DNA of 64,000 bases. Source: a virus (Duplodnaviria; Heunggongvirae; Uroviricota; Caudoviricetes). This document shows, piece by piece, positions 1-42,189 of the stretch; position 1 is the stretch's first letter; each line of letters starts with the position of its first letter. Made by a program: the position numbers and the translations under genes. Below the pieces are notes generated by a model. It saw nothing but the letters and a program-made list of their open reading frames with translations. It searched no databases and was not told the origin of the DNA. The stretch lies in IMG/VR virus record IMGVR_UViG_3300021431_000082, positions 8,047 through 72,046 of that record; one strand, 5' to 3'.

Positions 1-1385
1 ATTCGACCACGAAAGCTTTAACCACAGCTTCATTTATGCCATTTGGGGCCATTCTATTTTACAACAGTACGTATGCGGTTAATGCAAATGCAGTGATTCC
101 AAATGGTAGGCTGTACGATAGTTTGCTTATTGATCTTAGATATTCATTTAATATCGGAACAACTTTAACGGCTAACAAAGCTGTGTATATAGTTGCTGTT
201 CCACAGAGCGATGGCAAAGCAAAACTTCACGCCACAACCCCGATTTCTCAGACGTTGCCAACGACAGCCGATGGTAATTATTATATCTACCTTGGTATAG
301 CGTACAGCACCTATCAGGTAACGCTACCACGTAACTTCCATCCGGTGTTTATGTATGCGAACAGCGCTGTCAGAGAAGTAAGTCAATATGCTCCATATGC
401 CGGTGATTCAGCGACTGTATCTGGTCATACTGTTGCCAAGGATGTTCCAAGTGATGCTCTCTTCACTGATCACACCTATACAGCCGCAACTGCCGCTCCT
501 GGCGAAATCGCAACTACAGGTGCTAAAGGCTCATCTTCAAATTATGCCAGACAAGATCATACTCATGCGATCAGTCTTGCAACCGGAGATAGTAACGGAC
601 AGGTAAAGATTGCCGGTGAGAATGTCGATGTCAAAGGACTTGGAGCGCTTGCATACAAAGCCAGTCTCAGTAAGTCTGACGTTGGTCTTGGAAATGTGGA
701 TAACAAATCTTCCGCAACGATACGAGGCGAGATTACATCATAGAATGTGACTACCGCACTTGGATATACCCCAGTGAATAAGACTGGAGACACCATGAGC
801 GGCGATCTCGCTCTTAGTGCAGGAAGTGTTACTGCTAATGCCGGGTCTATCGTTTCAGGTGTGAGCACAAGAACAAGTGAGTCACAGGTCCATGCTATTA
901 GTAAATCTGGTGATATCTACCTGTATTCAACCGGTAACTCAAGTGGTAACGGGGCAAGGGGTCTTTATGTACCGGCTCATGGAACCGGCGGCGCTAAGAA
1001 TATTATCGCAGTTGACACAAACAACAACGTCACATTCTCTGGTTCTCTAAGTGGTGCCGCCTCATCCAATGTCTTAAAGTCCGGTGATACGATGTCTGGT
1101 CAGCTTACCCTTAAACCCGATTCAGGCGAAGGTGGTCAGATATGTCTTGATGCTTCAACGGCACAAACAACTCAGGGTGGTATTTATCTTGATCAGGTAA
1201 ACAGCTCATTCAGAATATTTGGTAAACCGTCCGCTGATGGAAGCACCTGTCAAGGATCAGGAACGATTCTCACATACTATCCATATAACTCAGGCAAGAT
1301 GACAATCGGAAGCGCAAGGGTCATGACATCTGCAATGTTCTCTCTCAGCGGAACGACCTTAACTATCACTATCCCAACTAACTAA
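1..1385 (+). CDS. tail fibre protein (5' end outside window; in-frame TAG at 741-743)
   Basis: ORF 36..743 stays open back to base 1 and continues in the same frame through a single TAG into ORF 747..1385. The protein is G/S/T-rich with repeated K-SGDTMSG-L motifs typical of phage tail fibres. Confidence 0.55.
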
Positions 1386-1393
1386 GGAGTAAA

Positions 1394-2026
1394 ATGGTAA
1401 ACATATACGGTTCAGGCGGTGGTGGTGTCTCATCTGAAGACATCACTGCTCGCCGAGCCGATGTTCTTGAGACAGTCTCAACTATAACATCAGATTCAAA
1501 TGATGAGATGGTCAAAGGAACATTGGCAAATATTGCTGCGGAAGAGTCATATAAAAGCGTAAGGACAGATTCTTCCAACCTTTATCTCGGCGTAACTTCA
1601 GGTGCTCATGTAACGAATACAGCCTCTGGTTATCCGGCGGTTTATATTCCGCTGTCAAAGCTTCGTGAAAAGATCGGAGTAACGGACGCTTCGAAGATCC
1701 TCTCCGGTGTAACTATTGCAGGTCTTACCGGGACTATGACAAACCAGGGATCAAAGAGTACGACTCTTGCCATCAATACATCTTACATAGTTCCAAAGGG
1801 TTATCACGATGGTACGGGCAAGGTTACTGCGGATAAAGATTACAGTACAAAGGCGGCATTCAGTTATACACCGAACAAGCCGACTTCAAATCATATGATC
1901 CAGGCCGCTGGCGTTTATATGTCCGGGGATATCACACTCAAAGGAGATGCTAATCTCGTGGCGTCAAACATTAAGAAGGGCGTAAAGATCTTTGGAATAA
2001 CTGGAACTTACGAATATGATTGGTGA
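1394..2026 (+). CDS. tail fibre / receptor-binding protein paralog A
   Basis: 210-aa ORF with an RBS. Its N-terminus (MVNI-GSGGG-V-S-D-TA) is shared with the next gene, and it is rich in G/T/S. Confidence 0.5.
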   Translation: MVNIYGSGGGGVSSEDITARRADVLETVSTITSDSNDEMVKGTLANIAAEESYKSVRTDSSNLYLGVTSGAHVTNTASGYPAVYIPLSKLREKIGVTDASKILSGVTIAGLTGTMTNQGSKSTTLAINTSYIVPKGYHDGTGKVTADKDYSTKAAFSYTPNKPTSNHMIQAAGVYMSGDITLKGDANLVASNIKKGVKIFGITGTYEYDW

Positions 2027-2032
2027 TTTAAA

Positions 2033-3193
2033 ATGGTAAATATAATTTGTTCAGGTGGTGGTAGTGTATTTTCTGATGACGTAACAGCTTCAAAAGCCCA
2101 AGTCGTTGAAGGATACTCCACAATCACTTCAGACTCAAATGATGAGATTGGTGAAGGTACGATGAAGGAAGTCGGAGCAAATGACCCATCAGTTTCAAAT
2201 GGAATTGCGAATTCAAACCTGTACCTTCGCATGACCAATGGAGCGCATCGGACTGCAAATGCGACCTCTGGATACCCGGAGGTTTCGATCCCGCTCGCTG
2301 ATCTCAGATCGACGATTGGATTTGCGGATACCGCCAATGTATTGGAGGGATATACGATTGCCGGCGCCGAAGGCACGATGCCCAATAAGGGTGCATGGAA
2401 TGGGAAAGTAGGACTTACAGGCTCTGTTACAATCCCGAAAGGATATCATAATGGGAGTGGAAAGGTCACAAGGTCTTTTCAGGTATATCCCGGTACTATT
2501 GCTACGCCGGCTGCAAATGATCAGGTAATTCTAACTTCAGGCAAGATTCTGACCGGCAATGTCAACTGTGCCGGTGATAAGAACTTAATTGCGGCCAACT
2601 TAAAACACGGCGTTTCTATCTTTGGAGTGACGGGAAGTTATGTGAGTCCCTATATCTACAATGGTGGAGACGCTACTGCTCTCTTTGGATCGAAGTCGTT
2701 TGGGTTCAAGATTAACGCCGGTGGTGATTATGGCGCAGCTTGGGGTGGATTAGTTTCCTATAATACGGCGAACATGACTGGGTCGTTCACTTTTAACAAT
2801 AACCTTAGTACATATAACTATGGAGCTTGTTATCTTGTTGCTAATAAAGCATTTGATATTAGCAATTACAATACATTAACATTATCATATACTGCTACAC
2901 CCGATGCAACATATCCAGGCTATTACTTTGTTCGTATCTATGTCGGGGTATCGGCGTCATGTGAGCGTCTAAGTTCAGATCCTTCAACACAGAGCTATTA
3001 TCGTCTTGCTGGACCTGAATATGACTCAAAGGTCAATGCAACAGCAAGTGGAACTGATACTTGTGTTCTTGATTTATCGAAAGCAAAAGCAAAAGGTAGT
3101 TTATACTACCCGTTTATTTATGCAACCATAAGCCATGATGCAAGTTATAATGCGACTGTTGGTGTAAAGGTTAACAGTCTTGTATTAAGTTGA
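2033..3193 (+). CDS. tail fibre / receptor-binding protein paralog B
   Basis: 386-aa ORF. The first ~120 aa are ~50% identical to 1394..2026 and the C-terminus is divergent. Confidence 0.5.
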   Translation: MVNIICSGGGSVFSDDVTASKAQVVEGYSTITSDSNDEIGEGTMKEVGANDPSVSNGIANSNLYLRMTNGAHRTANATSGYPEVSIPLADLRSTIGFADTANVLEGYTIAGAEGTMPNKGAWNGKVGLTGSVTIPKGYHNGSGKVTRSFQVYPGTIATPAANDQVILTSGKILTGNVNCAGDKNLIAANLKHGVSIFGVTGSYVSPYIYNGGDATALFGSKSFGFKINAGGDYGAAWGGLVSYNTANMTGSFTFNNNLSTYNYGACYLVANKAFDISNYNTLTLSYTATPDATYPGYYFVRIYVGVSASCERLSSDPSTQSYYRLAGPEYDSKVNATASGTDTCVLDLSKAKAKGSLYYPFIYATISHDASYNATVGVKVNSLVLS

Positions 3194-3253
3194 GGTAACT
3201 AATATACATTTTCATAATAAATCCAATATACAGCGAGCGCGATAAGCTGTATG

Positions 3254-3285
3254 TTGTGTTTATATATAAAAATCAATTGTATAAT
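3254..3285 (+). promoter_or_regulatory. sigma70-like promoter candidate (extended -10 TGTATAAT)
   Basis: TTGTGT ... TGTATAAT lies in the AT-rich gap upstream of the 3405 gene. Confidence 0.3.
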
Positions 3286-3404
3286 ATCGTCGCGAAATAT
3301 TATGCATGAGATTTTTATAACCTGTTGTTACTCAATCAAACAAAAAAACGAGGTAAAATTTAATTATGAATGAGAACGTCGATTATGGAATGTAGGGTAG
3401 CACT

Positions 3405-3929
3405 ATGTGGTTTCTTGCTCTGATGCTTCTGCTGTTTGGTGGCGGATTCGGTGGTGGATTTGGCGGTGGCCGTCCGATGCCTAATTTTGCAACACAGGAA
3501 CAGGTGCAGGAAGGTTTCAATAATCAGTCTGTGCAGAACCAGCTTCAGTAGATTGCTCTCAGCTCTGCAAACAACAACTATCAGACTGCTCTCCTGCTGA
3601 ATCAGCAAACCAATCAGCTTGAACAGCAGAACAATACAAACCTGATCAATGCTATCCAGGGATTCAATTCCGTGAATCAGGCAATTCAGAATCAGACAAA
3701 TGTTCTCCAGAGTCAGCTTCAGCAACTCGGCGCTCAGATGAACGAGTGCTGCTGCTCTATCAAGACTCAGATGCTTCAGGATAAGTATGAGGCTACTCAG
3801 TCTCAGCTTAATGCCGCTCGTAACGAAATCAGCAACTACAATCAGTCCCAGTATCTGCTCGGTCAGATGGGACGCTATGTGGCGTGGGCTGGTTCAGGCT
3901 CTCAGGCGGCTGCTGGCGCTAACGGCTAA
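3405..3929 (+). CDS. Gln/Asn-rich secreted or membrane-anchored protein with in-frame TAG (3549-3551)
   Basis: ATG at 3405 is followed by a hydrophobic N-terminus and G-rich linker, then Q/N-rich repeats. The frame runs through TAG (NQLQ-TAG-IALSS) into ORF 3672..3929. An alternative start at 3366 would add a second in-frame TAG at 3393. Confidence 0.45.
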
Positions 3930-3944
3930 TTTTGTTTTACCACT

Positions 3945-3970
3945 GGGGCTCCTTCGGGAGCCCCTTTTAT
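3945..3970 (+). terminator. rho-independent terminator
   Basis: GGGGCTCC-TTCG-GGAGCCCC hairpin followed by TTTT. Confidence 0.6.
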
Positions 3971-3988
3971 TAATGGAGAATATGGAGA

Positions 3989-4663
3989 ATGCCGATAAAG
4001 TTTGGCAATACGACTATAGATAAAATTATATATAACAACACCGATCTTGATAAAGTATATTTCAAGAATGGTAACAACGCTGCTGTACTTGTATTTTTTA
4101 CACCATACGCTTATAACGGATAGTCTTTTCGAGGGGATTTTAGTAGCGGTATCATCTCTGGTCCACAAGTTAAGAAAGGGGTTAACTCCGCGATATATGG
4201 GCCAATTGATCAAGCTCCCAGAGGCGCTACTTATACGAGCGGAGCTATATCTGATTCCTATACATAGACCACATCGGATGGGTATGGCCTAGGTGGCTTT
4301 GCAACAGTTGGACAAATTGATCTTACAAATATTTAGTCAATCAGGGTCAATCAAACATTCCACTGGTGGGTCAGAAATATTACTACAAGTAGTCCAGACT
4401 GGGTGTATGTGTAGCTGAATAGAGTGTATGCTTGCACTAAAAGCGGAAATGATTATGTAACACAGGCAGAGCTATATGGAACTTAGAGCGGTGTAGTCCC
4501 AGGCTACACTGGAAACAATGGTTATAATACGACCACTGGTGCTTGGACATTTAATTGCAGTTCTCTCACTGGTAATTATTATTTATTTTTTCAGATTGAA
4601 CATTCGAGTGAAGCGGTTGGAATAAACGCATAGACTACAATTAACAGTATAATACTATCATGA
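3989..4663 (+). CDS. tail/structural protein with six in-frame TAG codons
   Basis: ATG at 3989 to TGA at 4661. Six in-frame TAGs (4121, 4265, 4334, 4412, 4484, 4631) are the only stops in a 225-codon frame. The translation is a G/Y/T/N-rich tail-fibre-like protein. Confidence 0.55.
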
Positions 4664-4941
4664 AAAACAAAAAGAAAATCCAATTTACAAAGATAATCAT
4701 AACGATGGTGTTGATCTGGGCGATGCTTATGGTTAGCGCCACTTATGTTTTATAGGCATTTCATCGTGATCCGCCTGAGACTCTAAGCATCCGCATCGTT
4801 GAACTTATCATTGCGGCAATCATTACCTACTGTCTCAAGGCATTTTTTGAAACCAAAGAACAAGAAAAAAATCGATTGAAGGAAAAGGAACTAGATCGTG
4901 ACTATACAGATAGTGAGTCTTGTGAAGAACCTCGTGGATAA
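4660..4941 (+). CDS. holin-like small membrane protein with in-frame TAG (4753-4755)
   Basis: ATGA start/stop overlap with the previous gene. Two predicted TM helices (IIITMVLIWAMLMV, IVELIIAAIITYCL) precede a charged C-terminal tail. The frame is open through a single TAG. Confidence 0.4.
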
Positions 4942-4954
4942 AAGGAGAATGAAT

Positions 4955-5431
4955 ATGGAATTTAAACTGTCCCCGCCGTGGGCAATCTATTATCGTAAAA
5001 TCAATGCGCTGTTTGGAGAGGACCCTGAGATCAGGATTGTATACGATGAGGATGCTCCTGAGATCAAGCTGTATGTGGATAGCGTGGACAAGGCTGATGC
5101 CATGGCTCAGCTGCTCCCGGTCGAGAAGGAGTTCGGTAATGTCAAGCTGAAGATCACTGTCATTCCGCCGAACAAACTTGAAGCTGATAAGATCTCCGTA
5201 TTTGAGAAGATGTTCAAGGGTAACCCTGTGGTCTCCTTCATCACCGGCATTCAGGATATCTTTGCAACTCCGCTCCACTATATCGTTTTTAAGAATAAGG
5301 TTGTCCAGTATCACAACGATGATCTCAGCGATTTCTATGGCAACTGCTCCACGCTCTATCAGGATATTGCAAAAGATGTCTTCGGAAAACAAGAAAACAT
5401 TTACTTCTGCACCGACAGAGCAGACTGAATA
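4955..5431 (+). CDS. hypothetical protein
   Basis: AAAGGAG RBS sits 8 nt before ATG 4955. Same frame as ORF 4898..5428, ending in TGA. Confidence 0.5.
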
Positions 5432-5532
5432 TGCAAGTCTGATGCAGAGCCTCACTGAAGAAGTGAACGATATCAAGAAGTATGGCGAACCAAAAGGTAA
5501 GCGAATCACTCTTGAAATTATGAGGTCTTTAA

Positions 5533-6675
5533 ATGACAAAGTTAGAAATGATTGACGCCATCATCGCCTACATGAAAGCTGATGACGGCTATCTGGAGAA
5601 AGCCACGGCGAATTCGAAGTATCTCTACACGAAGCTTCAGAACGCCGGCTATAACAACTACACCAAGTACTGGGATATCATCTATAAGGCGACCGGTCTC
5701 AACTATCAGGGTGGAGCATGGTGCATGGGGAGCATCATGGCTATCATGATTGAGACCCTCGGCGTACATAATGCCCAGACTCTGATGTATCAGAAGGCTG
5801 CAATTAATTGTCAGCTTACTTATGATATTTTCAGAGAACATGGTCAAGTCTATAGCACTCCTGAAGTTGGTGACCTGATCGTCTTCTGGAATGGCAAGCG
5901 CTTCCATCATGTCGAGTATGTCATCAGGATCAGCGGCGATACCTTCTGGACCTGGGGCGGGAATACCTCAAGTGATACAAGTATCGTTGTTGATAATGGT
6001 GGTGCAGCTCGATATGGAAAGCAGTATTCCATTAAAGCATGTAAAGCTAACAAACATAAGTTTCTTAGACCTGACTATGATGCTATCGCAACAGAGAGCT
6101 CAAACACAAAGCTGTGCAGTGGAACGCTCGAAGTCGTAGCCGCACTGAACTGTAGAGCCTCTGCTGTGACCGGTGCGGTGAAGACTACGTACTCTGCCGG
6201 CACCAAGGTCGAAGTCAGCCGCTATACATTCCAGGGTAATGCCTACTGGTTTAAGACTCAGGATGGATGGGTTAGCGGCAACTACTTAAAAGGATGGGTC
6301 AAGGTAGATACGACCGATCCTCACAACCAATGGTGGTACATGACCGGAAGTAAGAAGTCTGAGACCGCCTATGGTATTAATCAGATTCTTGAAATCAATG
6401 GAGCCACCTATCTGTTCAAGCCGAATGGATACGCACTCCAGGATGACTGGTACAAGGAGAACGACACCTGGTACTACGCATATGACAACTGCCAGATCAT
6501 CAGGAGTAACTGGCTCGAATACAAAGATCACTCCTACTATTTCGACTCAACTGGAAAAATGGTGACCGATGCTTTCGTGAAAGCTAAGAACGCCGAAACT
6601 TACTATTACTTAGACAAGGATGGCGTTTGGGATGGTAAAGCCTACCCAGAGCCGGAAGGAAGGATTGTGAAATAA
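5533..6675 (+). CDS. cell wall hydrolase: CHAP peptidase + SH3b + choline-binding-type cell-wall-binding repeats
   Basis: Cys (GGAWCMG) and His (GDLIVFWNGKRFHHVEY) CHAP signature, an SH3b-like middle region, and C-terminal W/Y-rich repeats (YYFDSTGKMVTD, YYYLDKDGVW). Confidence 0.6.
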   Translation: MTKLEMIDAIIAYMKADDGYLEKATANSKYLYTKLQNAGYNNYTKYWDIIYKATGLNYQGGAWCMGSIMAIMIETLGVHNAQTLMYQKAAINCQLTYDIFREHGQVYSTPEVGDLIVFWNGKRFHHVEYVIRISGDTFWTWGGNTSSDTSIVVDNGGAARYGKQYSIKACKANKHKFLRPDYDAIATESSNTKLCSGTLEVVAALNCRASAVTGAVKTTYSAGTKVEVSRYTFQGNAYWFKTQDGWVSGNYLKGWVKVDTTDPHNQWWYMTGSKKSETAYGINQILEINGATYLFKPNGYALQDDWYKENDTWYYAYDNCQIIRSNWLEYKDHSYYFDSTGKMVTDAFVKAKNAETYYYLDKDGVWDGKAYPEPEGRIVK

Positions 6676-7235
6676 TGAACGAGTTGAATCAGTTTTTTCA
6701 GATTAACATGAGGCAGTTCCTGTTGGAATTGTTTATTATCGCCGTTGTATTTTTGGGCTTCGATGACATCTACAACAAACTTAAGACCCGTCTTGGGATT
6801 GTAACAAAGGCGGATCTGGAAAAACAAAAGGAGCATGAAGCCATCAAGCGTCATAGCGAAGAGCTGGATGAGATACGTGCAGGTCTGGATGCGGTCAGGG
6901 AGGAATCTGAAAGAGCTGATTCCGACTTCAAATCCTAGTTCAAGGCCCTTAACGATAAGATCAATGTGCTTTCTAGTATGCTTGTGGAAATGCAGAGAAA
7001 GTCTGATGAATCTGAGAGACACAAACTTCATGACAGGATCGGTCAATCATATCGGTATTATCATGAACGCTTCGTTAACAACGCACCAGGGGGAGTATGG
7101 ACTGCGATGGAGAAGGAAGCTTTTGATGGACTGATTCTGGACTATGAAAACCACGGCGGTAAGAACTCTTTCGTGCATACAGTGTGCCAACCTGAGAGTG
7201 CGCAGTGGACTATAAAGGAGAATTACAATGGTTAA
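6675..7235 (+). CDS. membrane protein with in-frame TAG (6939-6941)
   Basis: ORFs 6675..6938 and 6966..7235 share one frame and are separated only by TAG. There is an N-terminal TM helix followed by a coiled-coil region. Confidence 0.45.
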
Positions 7236-7587
7236 TTGGTTAATTGAAAACTGGGCGTTAATTGTCGTGCTTATCTGCATGGTGTTTCTGACTGTGAATT
7301 CAGTGAAAAACTTTTCAGATAAACCGACCGATGAGCAGATCGAGCAGATCAGGAAGTGGCTGCTGATTGCGGTGACGGAATGTGAGGCTCAGCTCGGAAG
7401 TAAGACCGGCAGACTGAAGCTGTCTATGTGCTATGACATGTTTGTAAAGGCACTGCCATCTCTCGCCGCTATCGTCCCGTTTGAGCTGTTCTCTGACCTT
7501 GTAGACGAGGTTTTAGATGAGATGGAGATAATCCTGAAGAACCAGCCTGAAGTCCTTCAGAAGGTCGCACAGGGGGCTCAGGATTGA
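7228..7587 (+). CDS. small membrane protein
   Basis: 119-aa ORF with an N-terminal TM helix (WALIVVLICMVFLTV). Confidence 0.4.
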   Translation: MVNWLIENWALIVVLICMVFLTVNSVKNFSDKPTDEQIEQIRKWLLIAVTECEAQLGSKTGRLKLSMCYDMFVKALPSLAAIVPFELFSDLVDEVLDEMEIILKNQPEVLQKVAQGAQD

Positions 7588-7787
7588 TCGAAGAATGGTA
7601 GAACAAAATTAATGGTAGTCGTGTCTGGGCTGAGGAAGCAATGCTTGGTCCAGACGATGGCTACAATGTTTGGCTAGTTAATGGCGCTGAACCTATGTGG
7701 TACTCGAAGTACCTATTTGAAGAATGCTATAGGAAGGTAAGAAATGATAGCACAACCACTTCAGTACAAACCTATATCACTTAATGA
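7584..7787 (+). CDS. possible small protein with in-frame TAG (7599-7601)
   Basis: AGGGGG RBS then TTG start. The frame has only one TAG before TAA at 7785, and the translation looks protein-like (INGSRVWAEEAMLGPDDGYNVWLVNGAEPMWYSKY). Confidence 0.2.
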
Positions 7788-8001
7788 TGGAGGTAAGGAC
7801 ATGGATTTCATTGAGTTCCTCGTAAAGACTATTAACGAAGAGGCGAACGATGCCGGTAAGTATATGCAATGGGCTGGAGCTTGCAGTGACAAGACATGCA
7901 AGGACACCCTAAATGAAATTGGAAATCAGGAACTAATGCATCAAAAGAAACTGATTGACCTGCTTGCTAATCTTGCGAAGAAGGGAGTTGATAAGGAGTG
8001 A
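7744..8001 (+). CDS. hypothetical protein
   Basis: ORF from the track. The stronger RBS (GGAGGTAAGGAC) precedes the internal ATG at 7801. Confidence 0.4.
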   Translation: MIAQPLQYKPISLNDGGKDMDFIEFLVKTINEEANDAGKYMQWAGACSDKTCKDTLNEIGNQELMHQKKLIDLLANLAKKGVDKE

Positions 8002-8360
8002 ATGAATTTTATCCTTATGGCGGAATAACCGCTCCTACCTTTCAGCAGCCACAGTCTCAACAGCCACAACCGATACAGAGTCGAATCCTCAATGTAAACG
8101 GAAGAGTAGGTGCAGAGAAGATCAATCTCGCTCCCGAATCTTCTATCTTTTTGCTCGACTCTAAAGACCCGGTAATATGGTTAGTCACGACTGACAGCGC
8201 TGCTACAAAAACAATCACGAAGATTAACGCAACTATTGAAGAGGAAAATACACAGGAAGCTACGGCCCCTGTAGTCACTGATAAACTTGAAGAAAAACTG
8301 GATGACGTAATCAAGCGGATTACCGATTTGGAAAAACGCTTTGATTCATGGGAGGCATAA
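7998..8360 (+). CDS. hypothetical protein
   Basis: 120-aa ORF with a Q/P-rich N-terminus. Its start overlaps the previous stop (GTGA). Confidence 0.4.
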   Translation: MNEFYPYGGITAPTFQQPQSQQPQPIQSRILNVNGRVGAEKINLAPESSIFLLDSKDPVIWLVTTDSAATKTITKINATIEEENTQEATAPVVTDKLEEKLDDVIKRITDLEKRFDSWEA

Positions 8361-8614
8361 TGAGTCTACAAGAACTTGCACTTCAAAACAGTCCACAGAT
8401 GAACGGGATTAATAATCTAATCAGTACAATAAAGGCGGCACAGAATCCTGCCGCTATGATCCAACAGTTAGTAATGAATAACCAGCAGGCAAAACAAGCC
8501 AAAGAGATCGCTGATCAATATGGTGGTTGGGAGCAGGCGGCTAGGGCCGTAGCTCAGCAAAAAGGGATTGACATTAATCTTGTTCTTAAACAACTTTCTG
8601 GAGAATATAAATGA
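8348..8614 (+). CDS. hypothetical protein
   Basis: 88-aa ORF, translationally coupled to its neighbours. Confidence 0.4.
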   Translation: MGGIMSLQELALQNSPQMNGINNLISTIKAAQNPAAMIQQLVMNNQQAKQAKEIADQYGGWEQAARAVAQQKGIDINLVLKQLSGEYK

Positions 8615-10098
8615 TCGACACGACAAACGAGTTAGTAAGAGACATCAACGAATCTGTTACTGGCCAGACCTCACATGCAAAGACAGTCAACGAACTTGTC
8701 AGGGAAATTCGTGATGCTGTCGATGGAGTTGTGAACGAAGACCAGATCAGAGAGATTGTTGCCGGCATCATTGGCAGCGCCCCTGAAGCACTGGATACTC
8801 TTGGTGAGATCGCTGATGCTCTCTCTGAAATTTATACGAAGGCTGAGGTAGATACTCTCCTGTCTGGTGTTGATACCGCCGTTAAGCGCGCCGAAGCTAC
8901 CGTCAGCTCACTACAGACCCAATTCGATCAGGCTATGACCGCTCTGACTGAAGACTCAGAAGTACAGAACGCAAGAGTTGGGTCTGATAATGTACAATAC
9001 AGCACTCTGAAGGCTCGCCTCGATGCTGAGAATACTGAGTTAAAGAAACATTTTGAGGAGAGCAGTGCGTATCTTGGATTTGATGCCACAAATGCAATCA
9101 CTTCTATAGCATCTGGCTACTACACAAATGATGGAGCATTTAGCAATAATGGAAATTATTCCCATACTAATGACATTGATGTAGTAGGCGTAAAGAGTGT
9201 ATATATATCTGGAACATTACACACATATACGTTACAGCAGTTTCCTGCTATCGGCGTATTCTTGGGCGCTAATGACCAGTTAATTGCAACGCTTTACAGC
9301 TTGGTGCAACCGAATCAGGCGCCTTGGTTAGTGCGTGTACCTGACGGGGCAACCAAATTAATCATAAACACTGAATATAGGAAAAACGACTATCCAACAT
9401 CCTTGCCTGATGGGGTACTTTGCCTTAAGGTGCAAAAAGAGATTGTGTACTACAACGATCTCAGTGCCGGGAAGCGTATTAAAATTCTTGCCGGGGTTAT
9501 CAGGAATACCGGGACAGGGTGGGCGTTTATTGACGATGCGAACCATAATCCGCTTAATATGTCCGCAGTATCAGTTGATGACAGTGGGCACATCGTTCTG
9601 GATTATGGGTTTACCGCCAAAAAAGTTTTGTCTCTCGTTGGTGCGCCTGATGAAACTTTCGCTTCAAAATACAGAATCGGTGGTTCTGTCGGTCTGTCTC
9701 AAACACTGTTTAATGTTTCAACATTGCATAAGACTATCGGGGGGATGGTATCATATAACGGATCAAGTTGGAATATTAACTACACATCATTTTCCGGGGC
9801 ATCTTTTGACACGGCTACAGGGGCTTTGACGCTCACGCATGAATCTGTTGCAGAGTATCCCACAAGGGAAAAGTTCAATGTGTCCGCAACTGGCAGACGA
9901 TGCAATGTGCAGTTGGGAGAAATGTCAGATACTTCTCTGATTTTATACTTTTTAAATCCTGATGGTACAGTAAAGAAAACACCAGATACTAATATGAGGG
10001 CATATATCACGCGAGATTTGAATTCCATTACAATAAACGCCGACAGTATCATATCCGCAAGCGGTAACTTCTGGCTGTTTGGCGTGATGGAAGTTTAA
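8611..10098 (+). CDS. tail fibre / receptor-binding protein
   Basis: 495-aa ORF with an N-terminal coiled-coil region and a C-terminal beta-rich G/T/S/N domain. It is the last gene of the plus-strand structural block. Confidence 0.45.
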   Translation: MIDTTNELVRDINESVTGQTSHAKTVNELVREIRDAVDGVVNEDQIREIVAGIIGSAPEALDTLGEIADALSEIYTKAEVDTLLSGVDTAVKRAEATVSSLQTQFDQAMTALTEDSEVQNARVGSDNVQYSTLKARLDAENTELKKHFEESSAYLGFDATNAITSIASGYYTNDGAFSNNGNYSHTNDIDVVGVKSVYISGTLHTYTLQQFPAIGVFLGANDQLIATLYSLVQPNQAPWLVRVPDGATKLIINTEYRKNDYPTSLPDGVLCLKVQKEIVYYNDLSAGKRIKILAGVIRNTGTGWAFIDDANHNPLNMSAVSVDDSGHIVLDYGFTAKKVLSLVGAPDETFASKYRIGGSVGLSQTLFNVSTLHKTIGGMVSYNGSSWNINYTSFSGASFDTATGALTLTHESVAEYPTREKFNVSATGRRCNVQLGEMSDTSLILYFLNPDGTVKKTPDTNMRAYITRDLNSITINADSIISASGNFWLFGVMEV

Positions 10099-10195
10099 CT
10101 GACCCGAAAGGACACTTTAAATTAGCCACCGACATAAATGTCGGGGCCATCTGAACATGTACAAAATAGACCTACACTTCTAAGCCATGTGTAAA

Positions 10196-10228
10196 CCCGG
10201 ATGGAGAAATCTGTCCGGGTATTTTTTT
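10196..10228 (+). terminator. rho-independent terminator (end of plus-strand late operon)
   Basis: CCCGGATGG...TGTCCGGG hairpin then TATTTTTTT. A second hairpin for the convergent minus-strand gene follows at 10238-10262. Confidence 0.55.
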
Positions 10229-10259: not shown

Positions 10260-11243
10260 TCAAGCATATTTCCTGTATGAGTTTTTGACATGCTCATTTT
10301 CTATGAACACATATCGCATTGTCGTGTCGATCTTATCATGGCCAAGGATGGCAGCAACTTCCTGGATTGACATCCCATGATTTATCAAATTGGTCGCAAG
10401 CGTTCTTCTGAATCTATGAGGATGCACATTATCTACGCCGGCCTTCCTCGCTATGGTGTTTAGTCTGAATCTAACTCCGCCTGGTGTCAATCGCTCAGAA
10501 CCTTTACCAATGAACAGAGCTTCACTGTTATCGAGTCGTTCGGCGAAGTATCTCTTCAGCAACATAGCAGTCACATTATTAATATATACGACTCTCTCCT
10601 TCTTACCCTTACCGTGTACCTTACATTCAAGGTTTTGGAAATCAATATCATCTCTGTTTAGTTTGCACACCTCTCCTATTCTGCATCCGGTAGAGAGTAA
10701 GAATGATATGATAGTTCTATCTCTAACGCACTTGCAGCTTTCTTTAAGGCGCTCGATGTCAACGTCATTAAATGGTTTGCGAACTATTTTAGCGCATTTA
10801 ATCGTATTGATATTCGCGCATGGATTCGCATCTATCAGTCCTTCTTTTTGTAACCAACCGAAGAACGAACTGAAAACACTTCTCACACCCTCAATGGTGC
10901 TGTCAGATATTCCTCGCTCACGCATTCCCATTAAATAGCTACGGAGATGATAGATTGTGATCTTGCGTATAGGCACCTTCACGACTTCTAACATACGTCT
11001 GATAACGTATGCATATCTTTCTGTCGTCTTCGGTGATCTTCCTTCGATCTGCTTCGCCTCGATGAATGCAGATATAAGATCTTCTGAGTCGATAGAGTAT
11101 CCGTCATTGGAAGCTTCTATATTATATTGTGCTATTTGATCCAAAAGCATACTCATTACTGCATTGGTATTATTCACAGTTAATATGTTTCCGAGTTGTT
11201 TTTCGATATCACGCAACATCATCTGTTTCGCAGAGATAGACAT
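10260..11243 (-). CDS. tyrosine recombinase / integrase (XerC/XerD-like)
   Basis: Core-binding and catalytic motifs: ...TGCRIGEV..., HRFRRTLAT, LGHDKIDTTMRYV. Confidence 0.8.
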   Translation of the reverse strand: MSISAKQMMLRDIEKQLGNILTVNNTNAVMSMLLDQIAQYNIEASNDGYSIDSEDLISAFIEAKQIEGRSPKTTERYAYVIRRMLEVVKVPIRKITIYHLRSYLMGMRERGISDSTIEGVRSVFSSFFGWLQKEGLIDANPCANINTIKCAKIVRKPFNDVDIERLKESCKCVRDRTIISFLLSTGCRIGEVCKLNRDDIDFQNLECKVHGKGKKERVVYINNVTAMLLKRYFAERLDNSEALFIGKGSERLTPGGVRFRLNTIARKAGVDNVHPHRFRRTLATNLINHGMSIQEVAAILGHDKIDTTMRYVFIENEHVKNSYRKYA

Positions 11244-11714: not shown

Positions 11715-11752
11715 AATCGAACGTCAGGAAACCCCTCGTTTTTGGCTTAAAT
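11715..11752 (-). other. tRNA 3'-end-like segment (attP core candidate)
   Basis: T-arm-like GACGTTCGATTCCCGTC overlaps the 3' end of the integrase gene. Short repeats AATCGTAG/AATCGTGA lie just downstream at 11617-11655. Confidence 0.25.
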
Positions 11753-13112
11753 CAATGACTTTCGAGGGTTGTTCCATCGTAGTTGCTTCATCTTCTACGA
11801 TTTGGAACTCCGGTATCCGACTCAGAATGTCTGCTTTTGTATCGACACTCTTCCTGTTCCGGTGGTAGTGCTTCTCCGTGACAAGAATATTTGAGTGCCC
11901 CATCTGCGAGGTTACAAAGTTTTTGTCGACCCCGGCATCCAGTAATATCGAGCCATAAGTTTTGCGGATTTTGTGTGGAGATTTGCGAACGATGTGTAGT
12001 TCGTCGCATAGATTTCTCAGGCGGGTCCTAAACGTGTTGGTTGTCAGTCTGTGCCGCCCATTCATGAAAATGAATTCTTTGTCCGGGTTCAGGCTGTTGA
12101 CGGTGTCATAGAGCCAGCTGAATCCCCTGGGCAGGATGATCTTCCTGATGCCGGCGAATGTCTTCGGGGCATCCTTGATGTTGTAGTGGTACTTGCCGTC
12201 ATCGCCAAACTCTCTCGTCTCTGTCCGGTGAATCTCAATCATCCCATCCTTGAAGTCATCATGTTTTAATACCACTAGTTCCCCGATCCTCATACCGGTA
12301 ACAAACATCAGCATGATCCCAAGGTTTGTCTGGTCCTGGTGTTCAGCGAGGTAGAGCATGATGCGCTCATACTCAGCCTCGGAGAACACTTCCTCTTCGT
12401 CACTTCTTATGATGTGCTTGAAGTCATGGTCTGAAGAGTCCAGTTCGGAAATCACCAGGTCGATATTAAAGTTGATGAAACCTCTGCGCTTTGCACGTTT
12501 CAGCATCCCGCGCATGATGGTCTTAAGGTTCGAGAAAGCTTTTGATGTGAGGTTGTGCTTTGACGGCTGCTCCTCAAGGAAGTCCAGGATAGATTCGGGA
12601 GTGAGCTCGTTGATCTGCTTCTTACCAAAAGACTCAGCGAAGTAGCGCCGGTATTCCTGATGGTATCTAAGATACGTGGCAGCTGATATCTTCTTTAAGT
12701 CAAGCTTCCTTCTTGCCCACTCCTCGAATATCTCGTCTACCAGTGGATACTCTTCAAGGCTCCGGTAGTATTCCACGACAACATCTTCAACTTCTTTCTT
12801 CGTCTTCCTGTCTACAGTCCTCCTGCCCTTTACCGGGTCTGGAAGATAGGTACGCCATCTTCCCTTCGTCTGCCAGAACTTGGACTTGTGTTTCTCAAGT
12901 AGCCTTTTTCTCTCTGCTGTTTTCATCTGGTCTTGTAAATACGCCAGATCTATTATACCAGAGTCTATGGCTTTTTGTAAAATTTCCTGTGTTGTCATTG
13001 TTAGCGGTGAAGTAAGATGCCCAGAATACATGGGATCGTAATACAAAACATCGTTGCTCTCATTCGTTCCCCAAGCGACACAGCCAGGTTGTCTTCGCCT
13101 ATCTCTTCGCAA
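11724..13112 (-). CDS. tyrosine integrase (phage integrase family)
   Basis: TGMRIGELVVLK, HKIRKTYGS, MGHSNILVTEKHYH catalytic region. The true start may be an internal Met near 13000. Confidence 0.75.
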   Translation of the reverse strand: MRRDRRRQPGCVAWGTNESNDVLYYDPMYSGHLTSPLTMTTQEILQKAIDSGIIDLAYLQDQMKTAERKRLLEKHKSKFWQTKGRWRTYLPDPVKGRRTVDRKTKKEVEDVVVEYYRSLEEYPLVDEIFEEWARRKLDLKKISAATYLRYHQEYRRYFAESFGKKQINELTPESILDFLEEQPSKHNLTSKAFSNLKTIMRGMLKRAKRRGFINFNIDLVISELDSSDHDFKHIIRSDEEEVFSEAEYERIMLYLAEHQDQTNLGIMLMFVTGMRIGELVVLKHDDFKDGMIEIHRTETREFGDDGKYHYNIKDAPKTFAGIRKIILPRGFSWLYDTVNSLNPDKEFIFMNGRHRLTTNTFRTRLRNLCDELHIVRKSPHKIRKTYGSILLDAGVDKNFVTSQMGHSNILVTEKHYHRNRKSVDTKADILSRIPEFQIVEDEATTMEQPSKVIDLSQKRGVS

Positions 13113-13189
13113 TCTTTAAGCCAGACAACGTACTGCCAGATATAGATTGATGCGTTGATAATCAGTGTGCTCAGAATAATTGTTATCAT
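13001..13189 (-). CDS. small membrane protein
   Basis: 62 aa with an N-terminal TM helix and a TAAAGGA RBS. Confidence 0.35.
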   Translation of the reverse strand: MITIILSTLIINASIYIWQYVVWLKDCEEIGEDNLAVSLGERMRATMFCITIPCILGILLHR

Positions 13190-13569
13190 ATAATATTCCT
13201 TTAAAAGGCAATTTCAACTTCGTGCCACTCAACTTCGATCATGTCTAAAGCATCGGTCATGACTGCATCATTAATCTCTTCGTCTGTGGCATTTTCATCC
13301 ACAAAAACGGTTGTTTCTCTTCTGCTTTCGCCAAAATAAATTGTAGCGTCAATTCGCTTTCTCATTGCTTTGCTCCTTTAGAGGCCAGTTCTTATGCTTC
13401 ATGCGGTACTCAACATACCGTTTCGCACCTTCCCTGTGCCACCATGCCTGTATCACCGTACCGATATAAATTCCGATAACAAAAGTTAAAATCGTCATAA
13501 ATGTTCCTTTAAATTATGGCTGCGGGGTAGGCTTTCCCTACATACTGGCATGGTTTTCTGCCAGCGTCC

Positions 13570-13782
13570 TTATCTCTCGGTCTTTGGGTGAGAGCAGTTA
13601 AACGACCCGCAATGTGTCCTTTGTGAGCGAATTATGTCATGCCCAAATTGTCCCGGCATACCACATTCAAATACTGTGTCTGCTGTTGTAGTTGTGCCGT
13701 AATACCGCTGACACTTGGAGCAGTCACCATCGCATCGTACCAAGTCACCGCCGCAAGGGCGTATCTGTATGTCCATAATCAA
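13570..13782 (-). CDS. Cys-rich small protein
   Basis: 70 aa with multiple CxxC pairs and a TAAAGGAAAC RBS. Confidence 0.4.
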   Translation of the reverse strand: MIMDIQIRPCGGDLVRCDGDCSKCQRYYGTTTTADTVFECGMPGQFGHDIIRSQRTHCGSFNCSHPKTER

Positions 13783-16654: not shown

Positions 16655-17110
16655 TTAAGAATCCATACACCATAACCCAGTGTTCACGTAGGTCTTCTTT
16701 ACATCGATATTTTTCCCGATCAGAACGTAAAGACTCTGTGTTTTGGAACAAAATGTAGTCTGCCATTCGTTCACATAAGTTCCTTCGAACTCCGGGTAAT
16801 AGGTCTCGGTACTGTCATCGTCGTAATGTATTTCGATTGATGTGATGTCGTTATGCCGAACCCGTTCAAATTTCTTCATCCGGTATACCGGATCATCTTC
16901 AACGCCAAGCTCGAAGTGATCCGTATTTCCTTCCGGCAGAATTTCAATCACAACTTTTCCGACAAGCTCCATCTTTGCGATTGCATTGACGGCAATCCTT
17001 CTGATTCTTGTCCTGATATCATCGATTTCGAAAAATCCAATGTGCTTTTCCGGGATCGTCATCGAATCACAATTTTCAAAAACAAGCTCGATCTCTCTTA
17101 CGGTCTTCAC
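16655..17110 (-). CDS. hypothetical protein
   Basis: 151-aa ORF. Confidence 0.4.
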   Translation of the reverse strand: MKTVREIELVFENCDSMTIPEKHIGFFEIDDIRTRIRRIAVNAIAKMELVGKVVIEILPEGNTDHFELGVEDDPVYRMKKFERVRHNDITSIEIHYDDDSTETYYPEFEGTYVNEWQTTFCSKTQSLYVLIGKNIDVKKTYVNTGLWCMDS

Positions 17111-17464
17111 TCTTCTTCCTCTGCTTTCTTTTTCTCTTTAGATCGGGTAAGGATTTACACCTTACATGAGCGCTTGAATCTGTCTGTGGAGTCGACCGCT
17201 TTGCAGTGTCATCGTGCGCTTAGGCTGTACTCGTGTCTACTTATTCCACCACCGATCCGATTCATTTAAAGCCGTTCTCGTGCGCTTTATTCAGCCTATC
17301 CATTATTCTGTAGTACTCACCATCGGTTACTACATTTAACATCCACATCTTTAACATGGCGTTGGCACAATCCATATAGTCAATCGGCTTATCTTCTTTC
17401 ATGATATCTCCTTGACTTGCAGCACCTTGTATCCTTCAAGTTCAAGCCACTTGAAAGCATGTTC

Positions 17465-17695
17465 CTAATCCGTGAACCACCGAACAATCCTCTCTGTGAT
17501 TCTGTGAAACTTGACCAGGCATTCAAATTTCTTCATCGGTTTTTCAGTCGGCTGCGGGTCAAGTGCCTCAGCTCCCATCAGACAAGCCTCTTTGAAAATC
17601 GGGATCATACAATCTTTCAGCGGACTGTCTTTCCCCGTTTCAATAAGGGACTTCTCCATCGCCATAAGCACCTTTGCAGCTTCAACTTTTGTCAT
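17465..17695 (-). CDS. hypothetical small protein
   Basis: 76-aa ORF. Confidence 0.35.
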   Translation of the reverse strand: MTKVEAAKVLMAMEKSLIETGKDSPLKDCMIPIFKEACLMGAEALDPQPTEKPMKKFECLVKFHRITERIVRWFTD

Positions 17696-17910
17696 GGTTT
17701 ATACTCCTCTGGCAGTGGCATCCAGGCAGCGACCTTGCAATATTGGGCACATTGCCATCTCCAATCTGAAACACAACCCCTCCAAATACTGGCATTTGTC
17801 CATCTCGCTATATCTAAACCGCCACCTTCATAGGTCACGAGATATTCTTCGTGTACAACCTCATCTAATTTAGGTGACGGTGGATTCTCAGTATTCCATT
17901 TAATCCTCAT
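17692..17910 (-). CDS. DUF551-like protein
   Basis: C-terminal AWMPLPEEYKP motif. Confidence 0.45.
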   Translation of the reverse strand: MRIKWNTENPPSPKLDEVVHEEYLVTYEGGGLDIARWTNASIWRGCVSDWRWQCAQYCKVAAWMPLPEEYKP

Positions 17911-17985
17911 TCTTCACCTTTTTAATCTCTGCAATACGGATATGTAATAAATGCAATAATCAGCACGATAATTAGGCCGGCAAAG

Positions 17986-18366
17986 TCATCGTTCATCTAA
18001 TCTTTGTTGTGCCATTTCGATTTCTTCAAATACCTCAAAGATGCTTCCGCTCTTATATCCGGTCTTTGTGAATTCCTCTAGGTCATCAATATCAATAGCC
18101 CCGTCAAAGCTGCCATCCGCATACATCCATTCGACGCTTACGAGGTCATGCTCTGTGTTACTGGTGATAACCGCGACTCTACGCTCATCTCCATACGGCT
18201 TCACGATAACAATATCTCCAACATTAACGCTGTTATTGTCTTCAACGGGAGTCAGTTTATTGATGTCGAACTGTGCAGTGATGAGATCGTTATTTCTTGA
18301 AATAAAGCCATCGTCTGTACTTAAGTACATAGTGGTTTCAGGGAGCTCAATAATATACTTTTTCAT
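17986..18366 (-). CDS. hypothetical protein
   Basis: 126-aa ORF. Confidence 0.4.
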   Translation of the reverse strand: MKKYIIELPETTMYLSTDDGFISRNNDLITAQFDINKLTPVEDNNSVNVGDIVIVKPYGDERRVAVITSNTEHDLVSVEWMYADGSFDGAIDIDDLEEFTKTGYKSGSIFEVFEEIEMAQQRLDER

Positions 18367-25012: not shown

Positions 25013-25242
25013 GTTTTACTCTTTACTACCTCGCTGATCAAAATCCCGATAAACCACACAACAGTTCCGATCTTCCAGGTGAAAGTTTGACCGATTAACA
25101 TACAAATTAGATACACAATTCCACATGTCGCTGCCCAACTGATAGCCATACAGACGATCACAAACAGAATGGTCAGGACGATCAGACCGCCCCACTCTTT
25201 AAGAAACTCAATCACCGAACCCCTCCCTACTAAGCTTTTCAA
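25009..25242 (-). CDS. small membrane protein
   Basis: 77 aa with two TM helices. Confidence 0.4.
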   Translation of the reverse strand: MKSLVGRGSVIEFLKEWGGLIVLTILFVIVCMAISWAATCGIVYLICMLIGQTFTWKIGTVVWFIGILISEVVKSKT

Positions 25243-25426
25243 ACAGCATCCTCATAACCTCTCGCTGGACAAGGAAGTCATCCTTTGACGGGTTGACCTT
25301 GTCGATCCAATCAATGTGCCTCTTAACTTCTGCGTCCTGAATGCGAAGGTTGATTGCATTCTGCGTGATACGAATGATCTGAGTGATCACCAGGATTGTC
25401 ACCATGATCGTCAGATAAGTATTCAT
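25208..25426 (-). CDS. small membrane protein
   Basis: 72 aa with an N-terminal TM helix. Confidence 0.35.
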   Translation of the reverse strand: MNTYLTIMVTILVITQIIRITQNAINLRIQDAEVKRHIDWIDKVNPSKDDFLVQREVMRMLFEKLSREGFGD

Positions 25427-26175: not shown

Positions 26176-26362
26176 TCAGATAATCTCTACGGTGTTCAAT
26201 CCCGTATACATGTATGCCGCCGCCGCAAAATGGACAGCTCCATACCGGATCACCACCCGCTGTTACAAACCCAGGTGTTTTGACCCAAACGCCTTTAGAA
26301 TTCTCCGACACTCTGCGCACCATCCTTATCTGACACATAGAGAGCACACTGAAGATCACCAA
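26108..26362 (-). CDS. zinc-ribbon protein
   Basis: CPFCGGG...CPDCGNK. Confidence 0.35.
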   Translation of the reverse strand: MVIFSVLSMCQIRMVRRVSENSKGVWVKTPGFVTAGGDPVWSCPFCGGGIHVYGIEHRRDYLNVCPDCGNKVRYPWEEDEKVQV

Positions 26363-26993
26363 TCGGCTCGAAGTAATACCACTTACCGTCGATCTTCTCC
26401 CACTCAGTCACAGCATAACCAAGGCTGTTGAAGTAATACTTGTGCTTGTTGATGACTTTCCAAGTATTCCACAGGTACTGTTTACCATCTTCCGAGTACC
26501 ACCATCCACCGGCATCGTGAGACCATCCGATCCTGTACTTCGGCGTATCAAACAGTTCCTTCTCTTTATTGCGGCGGACTGTCAGTCCCTTCACATGGCG
26601 GTATGTTCCATCAGGATTCTTTACCCGGTCATGGTTTGGAATGTCAGCGGAGATTTCAGCGATTGTCCGCTTGCCGTTATCAACGAGCTTATCAATTGAC
26701 CCGATATTGTAAGCGTATGAGACCATGGCATCGAACTGATTCTGGTTGAAGCGGTAGTGATCCTGCCACTTTGAAACCTTCGGGACGTAACGCTTCTGGA
26801 TGGTCTTCTTGAGCCATTCATCCGCCTGAGCCTGGGTGATCGTCATACCTTCTTTGATCTCGCCGATGATATCCTTGTCGTAGTTGGTATTGCCATAGCC
26901 GATAGTCAGAACGCCGACGATGTCATAGTAGGCCGTCAGTTTACATCCTTCGAACTGCTTAATTAATTCGAGACCGGCATCTGATATTGTCAT
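26295..26993 (-). CDS. GH24 (T4-type) lysozyme with C-terminal cell-wall-binding repeats
   Basis: LIKQFEGCKLTAYYDIVGVLTIGYG lysozyme motif with catalytic Glu, plus C-terminal GWWYSEDGKQYLWN / KYYFNSLGYAV repeats. Confidence 0.65.
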   Translation of the reverse strand: MTISDAGLELIKQFEGCKLTAYYDIVGVLTIGYGNTNYDKDIIGEIKEGMTITQAQADEWLKKTIQKRYVPKVSKWQDHYRFNQNQFDAMVSYAYNIGSIDKLVDNGKRTIAEISADIPNHDRVKNPDGTYRHVKGLTVRRNKEKELFDTPKYRIGWSHDAGGWWYSEDGKQYLWNTWKVINKHKYYFNSLGYAVTEWEKIDGKWYYFEPIGDLQCALYVSDKDGAQSVGEF

Positions 26994-37822: not shown

Positions 37823-38063
37823 CTTCGCCTCGTCGGATTGTTTCTCGACTCACATTATTCTTCTTCGGTTTAGTGACCCACTTCTTTGTATAAGCGTGAA
37901 TCATTTCATCCTCATAGATGTCCGGGCACTCCTGCTTGCCGTTTCTTAGCGTCGGCAGTGTTGCGGTATATTCCGAAATCTCGGTAACATCCTCTCTAAA
38001 TCTGTCGGCCTGTTTGCGCTTGCTGTTGCTGTGCGGGAAATGTCTTAAACCGTGAAGTCTCAT
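37794..38063 (-). CDS. hypothetical protein
   Basis: 89-aa ORF. Confidence 0.35.
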   Translation of the reverse strand: MRLHGLRHFPHSNSKRKQADRFREDVTEISEYTATLPTLRNGKQECPDIYEDEMIHAYTKKWVTKPKKNNVSRETIRRGEDDIGDWDAE

Positions 38064-41952: not shown

Positions 41953-42032
41953 TGCACCCAGCGAGATTTGAACTCGCACGGTTTCCCATAAGATCCTAAG
42001 TCTTACGTGTCTGCCAATTCCACCATGGGCGC
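41953..42032 (-). tRNA. tRNA-Leu (anticodon TAG)
   Basis: Cloverleaf read by hand: acceptor GCGCCCA, anticodon loop CTTAGGA, long variable arm, T-arm GCGAGTTCAAATCTCGC. Confidence 0.6.
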
Positions 42033-42184: not shown

Positions 42185-42189
42185 CATTG

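Follow-up and report, generated by a model that had tools for sequence, protein, structure and literature searches.

An amber-recoded lysis cassette with probable serine decoding in a sheep-rumen phage

We analyzed a 64,000-nucleotide stretch (the window) of the Caudoviricetes record IMGVR_UViG_3300021431_000082 in IMG/VR, covering positions 8,047 to 72,046 of that record, and focused on a small gene at 4660-4941 that encodes a holin-like protein with two transmembrane (TM) helices and carries one in-frame amber (TAG) codon. Comparison with related phages shows that this TAG is translated. The gene is part of a lysis cassette, the window encodes a serine-type tRNA with the anticodon CUA, and the TAG-containing late genes are kept apart from the TAG-free replication genes. 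We favor, at a probability of roughly 0.6, an explanation in which the lysis cassette is amber-recoded, TAG is decoded as Ser, the two-TM protein is a holin or a partner of one, and the switch in code gates its production. An amber-recoded gene in a lysis cassette is real and well supported here; it is a clear case of a strategy known from other phages rather than a new strategy, and the idea that recoding controls lysis timing has been published before (Borges et al.; suppressor-TAG holins in phAss-1).

A translated TAG codon in a late membrane-protein gene

The gene and its TAG codon are located as follows.

4660-4941, + strand: holin-like protein of 93 residues with two TM helices, phrog_27228 family; ATG at 4660, TAA at 4939-4941
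4753-4755, + strand: in-frame TAG at codon 32, at the outer end of the first TM helix (TM1); a sense codon, most likely Ser

The initial annotation had described a two-TM holin-like protein with a charged C-terminal tail and one in-frame TAG at this locus, and both the coordinates and a Kyte-Doolittle scan agree with that description. The scan identified hydrophobic segments at residues 12-30 (2.27) and 41-59 (1.96). The N-terminus is basic (MKNKKKIQFTK), and the last 30 residues are strongly charged, forming a tail that is net acidic. A word-indexed search returned 11 close homologues with 78-99% identity, all of which have a 'Q' at the TAG site. In the DNA of nine distinct relatives, however, codon 32 is TAG in every case (9/9), and translation with code 11 fails to give the database protein. 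Because the encoding DNA has TAG, the Q is an artefact of gene calling with code 15, and it was rejected as evidence for Gln.

The part of the gene downstream of TAG is under the same purifying selection as the part upstream. Across the nine relatives, the ratio of nonsynonymous to synonymous differences (pN/pS) is 0.07 upstream of TAG and 0.06 downstream, with a mean pS of 0.46 and 0.59 (45 codons), respectively, at which the synonymous sites are near saturation. No in-frame ATG, GTG or TTG is present downstream of TAG in 4660-4941, and the distant, non-recoded members of the family are single uninterrupted open reading frames (ORFs). Given the lack of a later start, the equal selection on both sides and the contiguous ORFs in the family, the downstream part needs read-through of TAG. 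By chance, a frame that stays open this long with one TAG in it has an estimated probability of about 0.1, which alone is not beyond chance; it is the retention of TAG in nine relatives together with the pN/pS values that places read-through beyond it. The view that read-through is needed for the full-length product, taken in the initial annotation, is thus borne out by the missing start, the selection on both sides and the contiguous ORFs of the non-recoded members, and a suppressor tRNA(CUA) is encoded in the window.

If TAG were a real stop, the gene would consist of a 31-residue peptide followed by a dead remnant, or would be a pseudogene. This is what standard-code gene callers deliver: the protein library contains 31-32-residue fragments of the gene (P0034 and P0124), and on an identical contig (L249) standard-code calling of 8591-9423 misses the holin-like gene and breaks 6675-7235 up into two ORFs. 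The 45 downstream codons, with a pN/pS of 0.06 at a pS of 0.59, the contiguous frame of the non-recoded family members and the suppressor tRNA encoded in the window all contradict it. We give this reading practically no credence, and the conservation pattern already rules it out.

The distribution of TAG over the window follows the division into late and early genes. The + strand from 36 to 10098 carries late genes, including tail-fibre-like genes and the lysis cassette, and beyond it, between about 10.2 kb and 64 kb, the genuine genes lie on the - strand and encode two tyrosine integrases, the DNA polymerase III (PolIII) alpha subunit, DnaB, DnaG, the Sak annealing protein, NrdD, an RNA ligase and others. 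In-frame TAG occurs 11 times in 3,179 late-gene codons (0.35%) and not once in the 9,290 codons of 34 early genes on the - strand. No gene in the window ends in TAG (0/48).

We place the window in a sheep-rumen phage of roughly 152 kb; a 151.8-kb sheep-rumen metagenome contig (L249) is 100% identical to it over 16.7 kb. Megablast with 12 kb of the window found no nucleotide-level match among GenBank phages. The two tyrosine integrases suggest that the phage is temperate, and the type of lysin and its relatives suggest a Firmicutes host. Scanning genome contigs with the PolIII alpha subunit revealed no prophage of this clade and no host; the PolIII relatives in Firmicutes genomes reached only 38-48%. 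The integrase genes, at 10260-11243 (-) and 11724-13112 (-), form an adjacent pair directly after the late operon, and a third ORF at 60754-61731 (-) looks recombinase-like by eye. The scanned integrases contain zero in-frame TAG, and the sole TAG of the third ORF falls within a probable over-extension of its start codon.

The amino acid inserted at TAG

Two tRNA genes of the window bear on the decoding of TAG.

43751-43837, - strand: suppressor tRNA with anticodon CUA, type II, Ser-type (ARAGORN; Rfam tRNA, 52 bits)
43311-43397, - strand: tRNA-Ser(UGA), of all tRNAs in the window the one most like the suppressor in structure

The tRNA(CUA) is 87 nt long, with an 18-nt variable arm, a C11:G24 pair and G as the discriminator (G73), and its D arm (GGCAGAGCGGTTGATTGC) is nearly the same as that of the phage tRNA-Ser(UGA). 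Seryl-tRNA synthetase does not read the anticodon, so a Ser-type tRNA(CUA) inserts Ser at UAG. The gene belongs to a tRNA cluster of 10-12 members that has replication and RNA-repair genes on either side, and it is encoded on the same strand as the TAG-free replication genes. Its anticodon arm (CAGACU-CUA-AAUCUG) looks Tyr-like. We rejected this resemblance to tRNA-Tyr and supF as evidence of isotype, since many unrelated phage CUA tRNAs, including amber suppressors of other isotypes, share the arm.

Similar suppressors are found elsewhere. Scanning IMG/VR for CTCTAAA preceded by a Ser-type D arm returned 22 contigs with a Ser-type tRNA(CUA) (L210-L231), many of them 80-415 kb in length, and most have an anticodon stem (GCGGTCTCTAAAACCG) that resembles the one in E. 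coli supD, a Ser amber suppressor. Judged from these tRNA genes, the 22 contigs may represent a wider set of phages that decode TAG as Ser. One of them (L222) combines the acceptor stem and D arm of the window tRNA with a classic, supD-like tRNA-Ser anticodon stem. The window tRNA resembles supD in being Ser-type with the anticodon CUA and differs from it in its anticodon arm. In other IMG/VR contigs (L093, L102, L107, L139, L151, L155, L166 and others), we observed CUA tRNAs of 88-93 nt with a Gln-like acceptor and D arm and an unusually long extra arm.

The codons and residues found opposite TAG in relatives point in the same direction as the tRNA. Of 90 pairwise comparisons, 39 place a Ser codon opposite TAG, with AGT, TCA, TCC and TCG among them. 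For 20 informative TAG columns of multiple alignments, the majority residue is S in 7, A in 6, N in 2, and P, E, T, G and Q in 1 each, and a BLOSUM-based log-likelihood is highest for S (-69.3), followed by A (-74.2), with Q at -84.8. In the lysin, TAG at codon 28 of four relatives stands opposite the conserved Ser in a YLEK.SNSQ motif that is present in 70 of 90 distant lysins; codon 28 is TCG (Ser28) in the window itself. The TAG column of the holin-like family reads A37 S7 E1 P1 G1 Q0 (47 members). One tail-fibre TAG (g36, codon 236) is aligned with D and L in two GenBank phages and is uninformative on this point. Among the amino acids that have type II tRNAs (Ser, Leu and Tyr), only Ser fits these sequence data, and TAG is most likely decoded as Ser.

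The databases translate TAG as Gln (genetic code 15), a reassignment that has been validated and is the one met most often for amber in gut phages; a single transition separates CAG from TAG, and a few TAG columns are indeed opposite Q, such as codon 108 of g3366 and codon 9 of g6675. We nevertheless prefer Ser over Gln, because the tRNA is Ser-type and the TAG columns contain S and A rather than Q. The type II structure, with its long variable arm and Ser-like D arm, is not Gln-like, Q lies 15 log-likelihood units below S, and Q is absent from the holin-like TAG column (0/47). Furthermore, the lysin alignment provides an internal control, as TAG does stand opposite Q in other phage clades of the same alignment. 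Of the two marks by which a phage is placed in code 15, alignment of TAG with Gln does not hold here, since S and A dominate the TAG columns, and the tRNA is not Gln-type; we give Gln only a slim chance. Decoding as Ser by a phage-encoded Ser-tRNA(CUA) has a precedent in the work of Ivanova et al. (2014), at least as summarised in PMC4695839, and this secondary citation was all that we found in the literature on TAG as Ser in phages; recent phage work and tools assume Gln for TAG.

A scan of the larger window proteins found neither a release factor nor an aminoacyl-tRNA synthetase, seryl-tRNA synthetase included, and an E-value scan of the tRNA cluster with Rfam found no ribozyme next to the suppressor. 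The cluster (41953-44476, -) also contains one tRNA called with a 4-nt anticodon (44317-44389) and two extra tRNA-like elements (42644-42733 and 42114-42184) that are seen only by Rfam and share their 3' half. A T4 Rnl1-type RNA ligase (38060-39154) and an AAA_33 kinase (39929-40783) adjoin the cluster, suggesting a tRNA repair module.

The lysis cassette and the candidate holin

The gene at 4660-4941 is surrounded by the following features.

3945-3964: strong terminator-like hairpin, just upstream of 3989-4663
3989-4663, + strand: tail-fibre-like or receptor-binding-like protein of 224 residues, first gene of the last late unit; six in-frame TAGs
4955-5428, + strand: soluble protein of 157 residues, function unknown, with a strong Shine-Dalgarno (SD) sequence, between the holin-like gene and the lysin
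5533-6675, + strand: endolysin with a CHAP-like N-terminal domain, an SH3b-like middle and choline-binding-type repeats; no TAG
6675-7235, + strand: protein of 186 residues with an N-terminal TM helix, a coiled coil and a C-terminal domain; TAG at 6936-6938 (codon 88)
7228-7587, + strand: protein of 119 residues with an N-terminal TM helix, phrog_36029 (function unknown); no TAG; alternative holin candidate
10195-10220, + strand: terminator-like hairpin closing the late operon that holds the lysis cassette

The two hairpins bound a single late operon, 3989-10098, which is the last late transcription unit. The TGA stop of 3989-4663 overlaps the ATG of 4660-4941 (ATGA), and the C-terminal 'SIILS' past the last TAG of 3989-4663 is kept in one relative. 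SD sequences are present at 4955, 5533, 6675 and 7228; none is recognizable at 4660, making the holin-like gene the only one in the cassette without an SD.

The lysin is well defined. Choline_bind_3 scores above the Pfam cut-off, with CHAP (E 8e-5) and SH3_3 (E 0.02) below it; homologues carry PF05257, C64 is near-invariant and H126 invariant across them, and LytA-type repeats match the protein with an E of 1e-12. An AlphaFold2 model (pLDDT 83.6) gave Foldseek matches to choline-binding modules and to the CHAP-SH3b lysin Ly7917. These results support the CHAP-SH3b-choline-binding architecture originally proposed for 5533-6675. The lysin had also been placed directly after the holin-like gene, which requires correction, as the 157-residue gene at 4955-5428 intervenes; the homologue of that gene carries TAG in three of the relatives examined (L083, L085 and L087). 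The two membrane proteins expected after the lysin, one with TAG, are both present. The TAG of 6675-7235 is kept in every homologue examined, those of the outgroups L244 and L245 among them, and TAG occurs in some homologues of 7228-7587.

The gene order of tail fibres, two-TM gene, a gene of 157-163 codons, lysin, TM/coiled-coil protein and TM protein is kept throughout the clade. A degenerate DNA pattern for FFETKEEEK returned only seven loci, one of them false; a back-translated search of IMG/VR with the holin-like protein found no relatives. In four unrelated IMG/VR phages, a family member follows the tail-fibre genes and stands directly upstream of an amidase gene, an NlpC/P60 gene, a lysozyme-like gene or a homologue of 7228-7587, often with further small TM proteins. 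Considering the conserved order in the clade and these neighbors in four other phages, phrog_27228 is, from its genomic context, a family of lysis-cassette components. It was the only significant family for the 4660-4941 protein (E 8e-4) and is matched by 23 of 50 family members, the best with an E of 4e-23. A profile search of 1.84 billion representatives extended the family to 137 clusters at 50% identity, with members typically 80-120 residues long. The shared layout consists of a basic N-terminus, (F/Y)(T/S)K, TM1, SY(I/V)LAF, a short loop, the second TM helix, GY..K(S/A)FFETKEEEK and a variable acidic tail.

Whether the protein deserves the name holin, as the initial annotation had it, is less clear. 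Class II holins, such as those of the S21 type, have two TM helices with both termini inside. The 4660-4941 protein resembles them in its small size, two TM helices, basic N-terminus, charged cytoplasmic tail and location in a lysis cassette, and it has the features by which a holin is defined operationally (small size, TM helices, a charged C-terminus and a cassette position), at one gene's distance from the lysin. In contrast to class II holins, it belongs to no holin sequence family, its tail is net acidic and one gene separates it from the lysin. No significant match to a holin family in Pfam, NCBIfam or PHROG was found for the protein, nor did any of 50 family members match one; its best 'holin' match is phrog_6384 with an E of 0.028. 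Only size, topology and position speak for the label, and the missing homology to holin families leaves it unestablished. A holin or holin partner is a reasonable guess that is consistent with the sequence features but unproven.

The competing view is that the two-TM protein is an antiholin, a lysis regulator or a superinfection-exclusion protein, and that the holin is encoded by 7228-7587, 6675-7235 or a gene paired with a GH24 lysozyme gene elsewhere in the window. The absence of a holin-family match and the net-acidic C-terminal tail, which is unusual for holins, fit this view. So does the weak PHROG holin match of 7228-7587 (E 0.02), as well as the co-occurrence of the family with further small TM proteins beside the lysin in L235, L238 and L232; in L232, a homologue of 7228-7587 comes after the phrog_27228-family gene. 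However, the position, the size, the N-in/C-in two-TM topology and the link to lysis cassettes in distant phages fit a class II holin, and the other candidates likewise lack holin-family membership. We regard this alternative as a serious one, somewhat short of even odds, and retain the two-TM protein as the leading candidate for a holin or its partner.

Additional observations concern these genes and their surroundings. The GH24 lysozyme gene (26295-26993, -) is a second endolysin-type gene, with choline-binding repeats and no TAG (phrog_7 endolysin, E 6e-42), and is located among - strand genes far from the lysis cassette; two genes downstream of it, 25208-25426 encodes a 72-residue protein with an N-terminal TM helix. 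Upstream of the operon, 3366-3929 (+, phrog_16490) encodes 187 residues with an N-terminal TM helix, a GGGFGGGFGGG stretch and a long coiled coil that is rich in Q and N and has a CCC motif; the gene contains two TAGs, and its homologue in L083 sits on the opposite side of the lysis cassette. In L086, an HNH/RRXRR endonuclease gene (12194-13642) is inserted between the lysin and the 6675-type gene, and a reverse-transcriptase-like ORF with a faint RVT_1 match (17061-18353) lies further downstream. In L244 (4217-5983) and L245 (4220-5986), a 588-residue Peptidase_C1 (papain-like) protein with choline-binding repeats is encoded between the 6675-type and 7228-type genes and, from its domains, may be a further wall-active enzyme of the cassette. 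Finally, the holin-like gene has a second, 33-codon copy of its 5' end (MKKKIQFTKIIITMVLIWAMLMVSAAKLVKPCT) between tail-fibre genes in L083 (9181-9282) and L084 (1647-1748); this copy is nearer to the window allele than to the resident full-length gene. We considered it as a stand-alone TM1 gene and dropped that idea, judging it to be a recombination scar; it looks like the scar of a tail-fibre cassette exchange with a breakpoint inside the gene.

Proposed gating of lysis by the recoded codon

We propose that TAG serves as a sense codon in the late genes and is decoded by the phage Ser-type tRNA(CUA). Without the suppressor, release factor 1 would end translation of the two-TM gene at a 31-residue product; the suppressor would allow synthesis of the full-length membrane protein. 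Ribosomes would also stop early in the six-TAG gene 3989-4663, which could reduce reinitiation at the ATGA overlap and possibly cause polarity on transcription of the distal operon. The output of the membrane components of the cassette would then be conditional on a tRNA encoded among TAG-free replication genes. In this scheme, TAG would act as a fail-safe against premature or lysogenic expression rather than as a fine timer. Setting of lysis timing by the TAG of 4660-4941 is compatible with the anatomy of the cassette, and the layout agrees with the published model of recoded late and lysis genes, in line with the lytic-timing role that the initial annotation had invoked.

Several observations weigh against this explanation, in addition to the missing holin-family match and the two other TM proteins of the cassette, either of which could be the holin. 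Genes for virion proteins need the suppressor at least equally, with six TAGs in 3989-4663 and seven in some homologues of g2033. Six or seven TAGs in one gene imply efficient suppression, so that a single TAG would be a fail-safe or lower the yield, and because virion genes carry as many TAGs or more, the TAG cannot delay the 4660-4941 protein relative to assembly. Ser is an inference from sequence, and at the codon-32 site homologues have A, S, E, P or G. The nearest outgroup (L245, 64% identity), although its genome is recoded, has Glu at this site and no TAG in the gene, and the TAG is therefore lineage-specific and dispensable for the function of the family; the TAG of 6675-7235 is conserved more deeply. 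Neither the lysin nor the GH24 gene of the window contains TAG. Moreover, TAG read as Ser has only one synonymous neighbor at a single step, TCG, and the persistence of TAG in nine of nine relatives needs no regulatory selection.

In an alternative account, the TAG of 4660-4941 is a neutral by-product of a genome-wide code change, a seventh Ser codon that, given efficient suppression, drifts into late genes with no specific role in lysis timing. TAG turns over fast in the structural genes and the lysin (present in 1-4 of 4-7 orthologues), the L245 homologue does without it, ordinary purifying selection suffices where a codon has a single synonymous one-step neighbor, and the efficient suppression implied by the six- and seven-TAG genes (g3989 and the g2033 homologues) makes one TAG a small barrier. 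On the other side, the absence of TAG from 9,290 early codons reflects selection on where TAG may occur, and the only TAG columns fixed in families of at least six members are those of the two membrane proteins flanking the lysin. In addition, synonymous diversity among the nine relatives is lowest in the gene exactly at the TAG (4738-4767, codons 27-36), at 0.13 vs a median of 0.40, ranking first of 62 overlapping windows; the dip is weaker at the other fixed TAG, in 6675-7235 (rank 25 of 170). RNAalifold predicted a hairpin around the 4660-4941 TAG with zero compensatory changes, and no covariation-supported structure was found there. The fixed TAGs and the synonymous minimum favor some specific constraint on the sequence, and we consider the neutral account less likely than gating, though it deserves weight.

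A more elaborate version of gating is a programmed switch between two products, in which a low level of suppressor would yield a 31-residue peptide with TM1 only and a high level the full two-TM protein. The ratio of the two, set by the abundance of tRNA-Ser(CUA), would act like an antiholin/holin pair. Coupling of its translation to the six-TAG upstream gene, and perhaps polarity caused by that gene, would strengthen the effect. The TAG position fixed in the subclade, the local synonymous minimum and the ATGA overlap without an SD are compatible with such a switch and do not prove it. We think it very improbable; if true, the dual-start motif of lambda S would have a counterpart built on a stop codon.

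The preferred explanation, a fail-safe gated by the code switch, closely follows a published model, according to which recoding of stops prevents late and lysis proteins from being made before the code switch, also in lysogens (Borges et al. 2021/2022; bioRxiv 10.1101/2021.08.26.457843). As in that model, TAG in the window is confined to late structural and lysis genes, with TAG-free replication genes and integrases, and a suppressor tRNA, a recoded TM-domain protein in the lysis cassette and integrases like those of recoded prophages are all present. The features of a recoded module of that type are seen here as selection across TAG, a tRNA(CUA), early genes that avoid TAG and the absence of TAG as a terminator. 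Unlike in the model, TAG is most likely Ser and not Gln, neither a release factor nor a synthetase was detected among the larger proteins scanned, and TAG density is low (0.35% of late codons) with a TAG-free endolysin. The gut phage phAss-1 of the 'Caudoviricetes code 15 clade', about 136 kb in length, offers a second comparison. It has tRNA-Sup(CTA) genes and TAG in about 28% of ORFs, among them a holin-annotated gene in two of three genomes, and its TAG was assigned to Gln by tRNAscan and TerL alignment (PMC10607447). phAss-1 encodes a remote relative of the holin-like protein family (39% identity, E 2e-4) and has no detectable nucleotide similarity to the window.

What this work adds is, first, the probable decoding of TAG as Ser rather than Gln. 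Our comparison indicates that public protein databases mistranslate this clade, or miss the holin-like gene under the standard code, and routine translation of TAG as Gln with code 15 is probably wrong for a clade with Ser-type suppressor tRNAs, a tRNA type present in at least 22 IMG/VR contigs. Second, phrog_27228, with its 137 clusters at 50% identity, is tied to lysis cassettes and becomes a candidate family of holins or lysis regulators. Third, the cassette provides a clean and well-conserved test case for the hypothesis that recoding gates lysis, in which single-codon swaps would be informative because the candidate holin contains one TAG and the lysin none.

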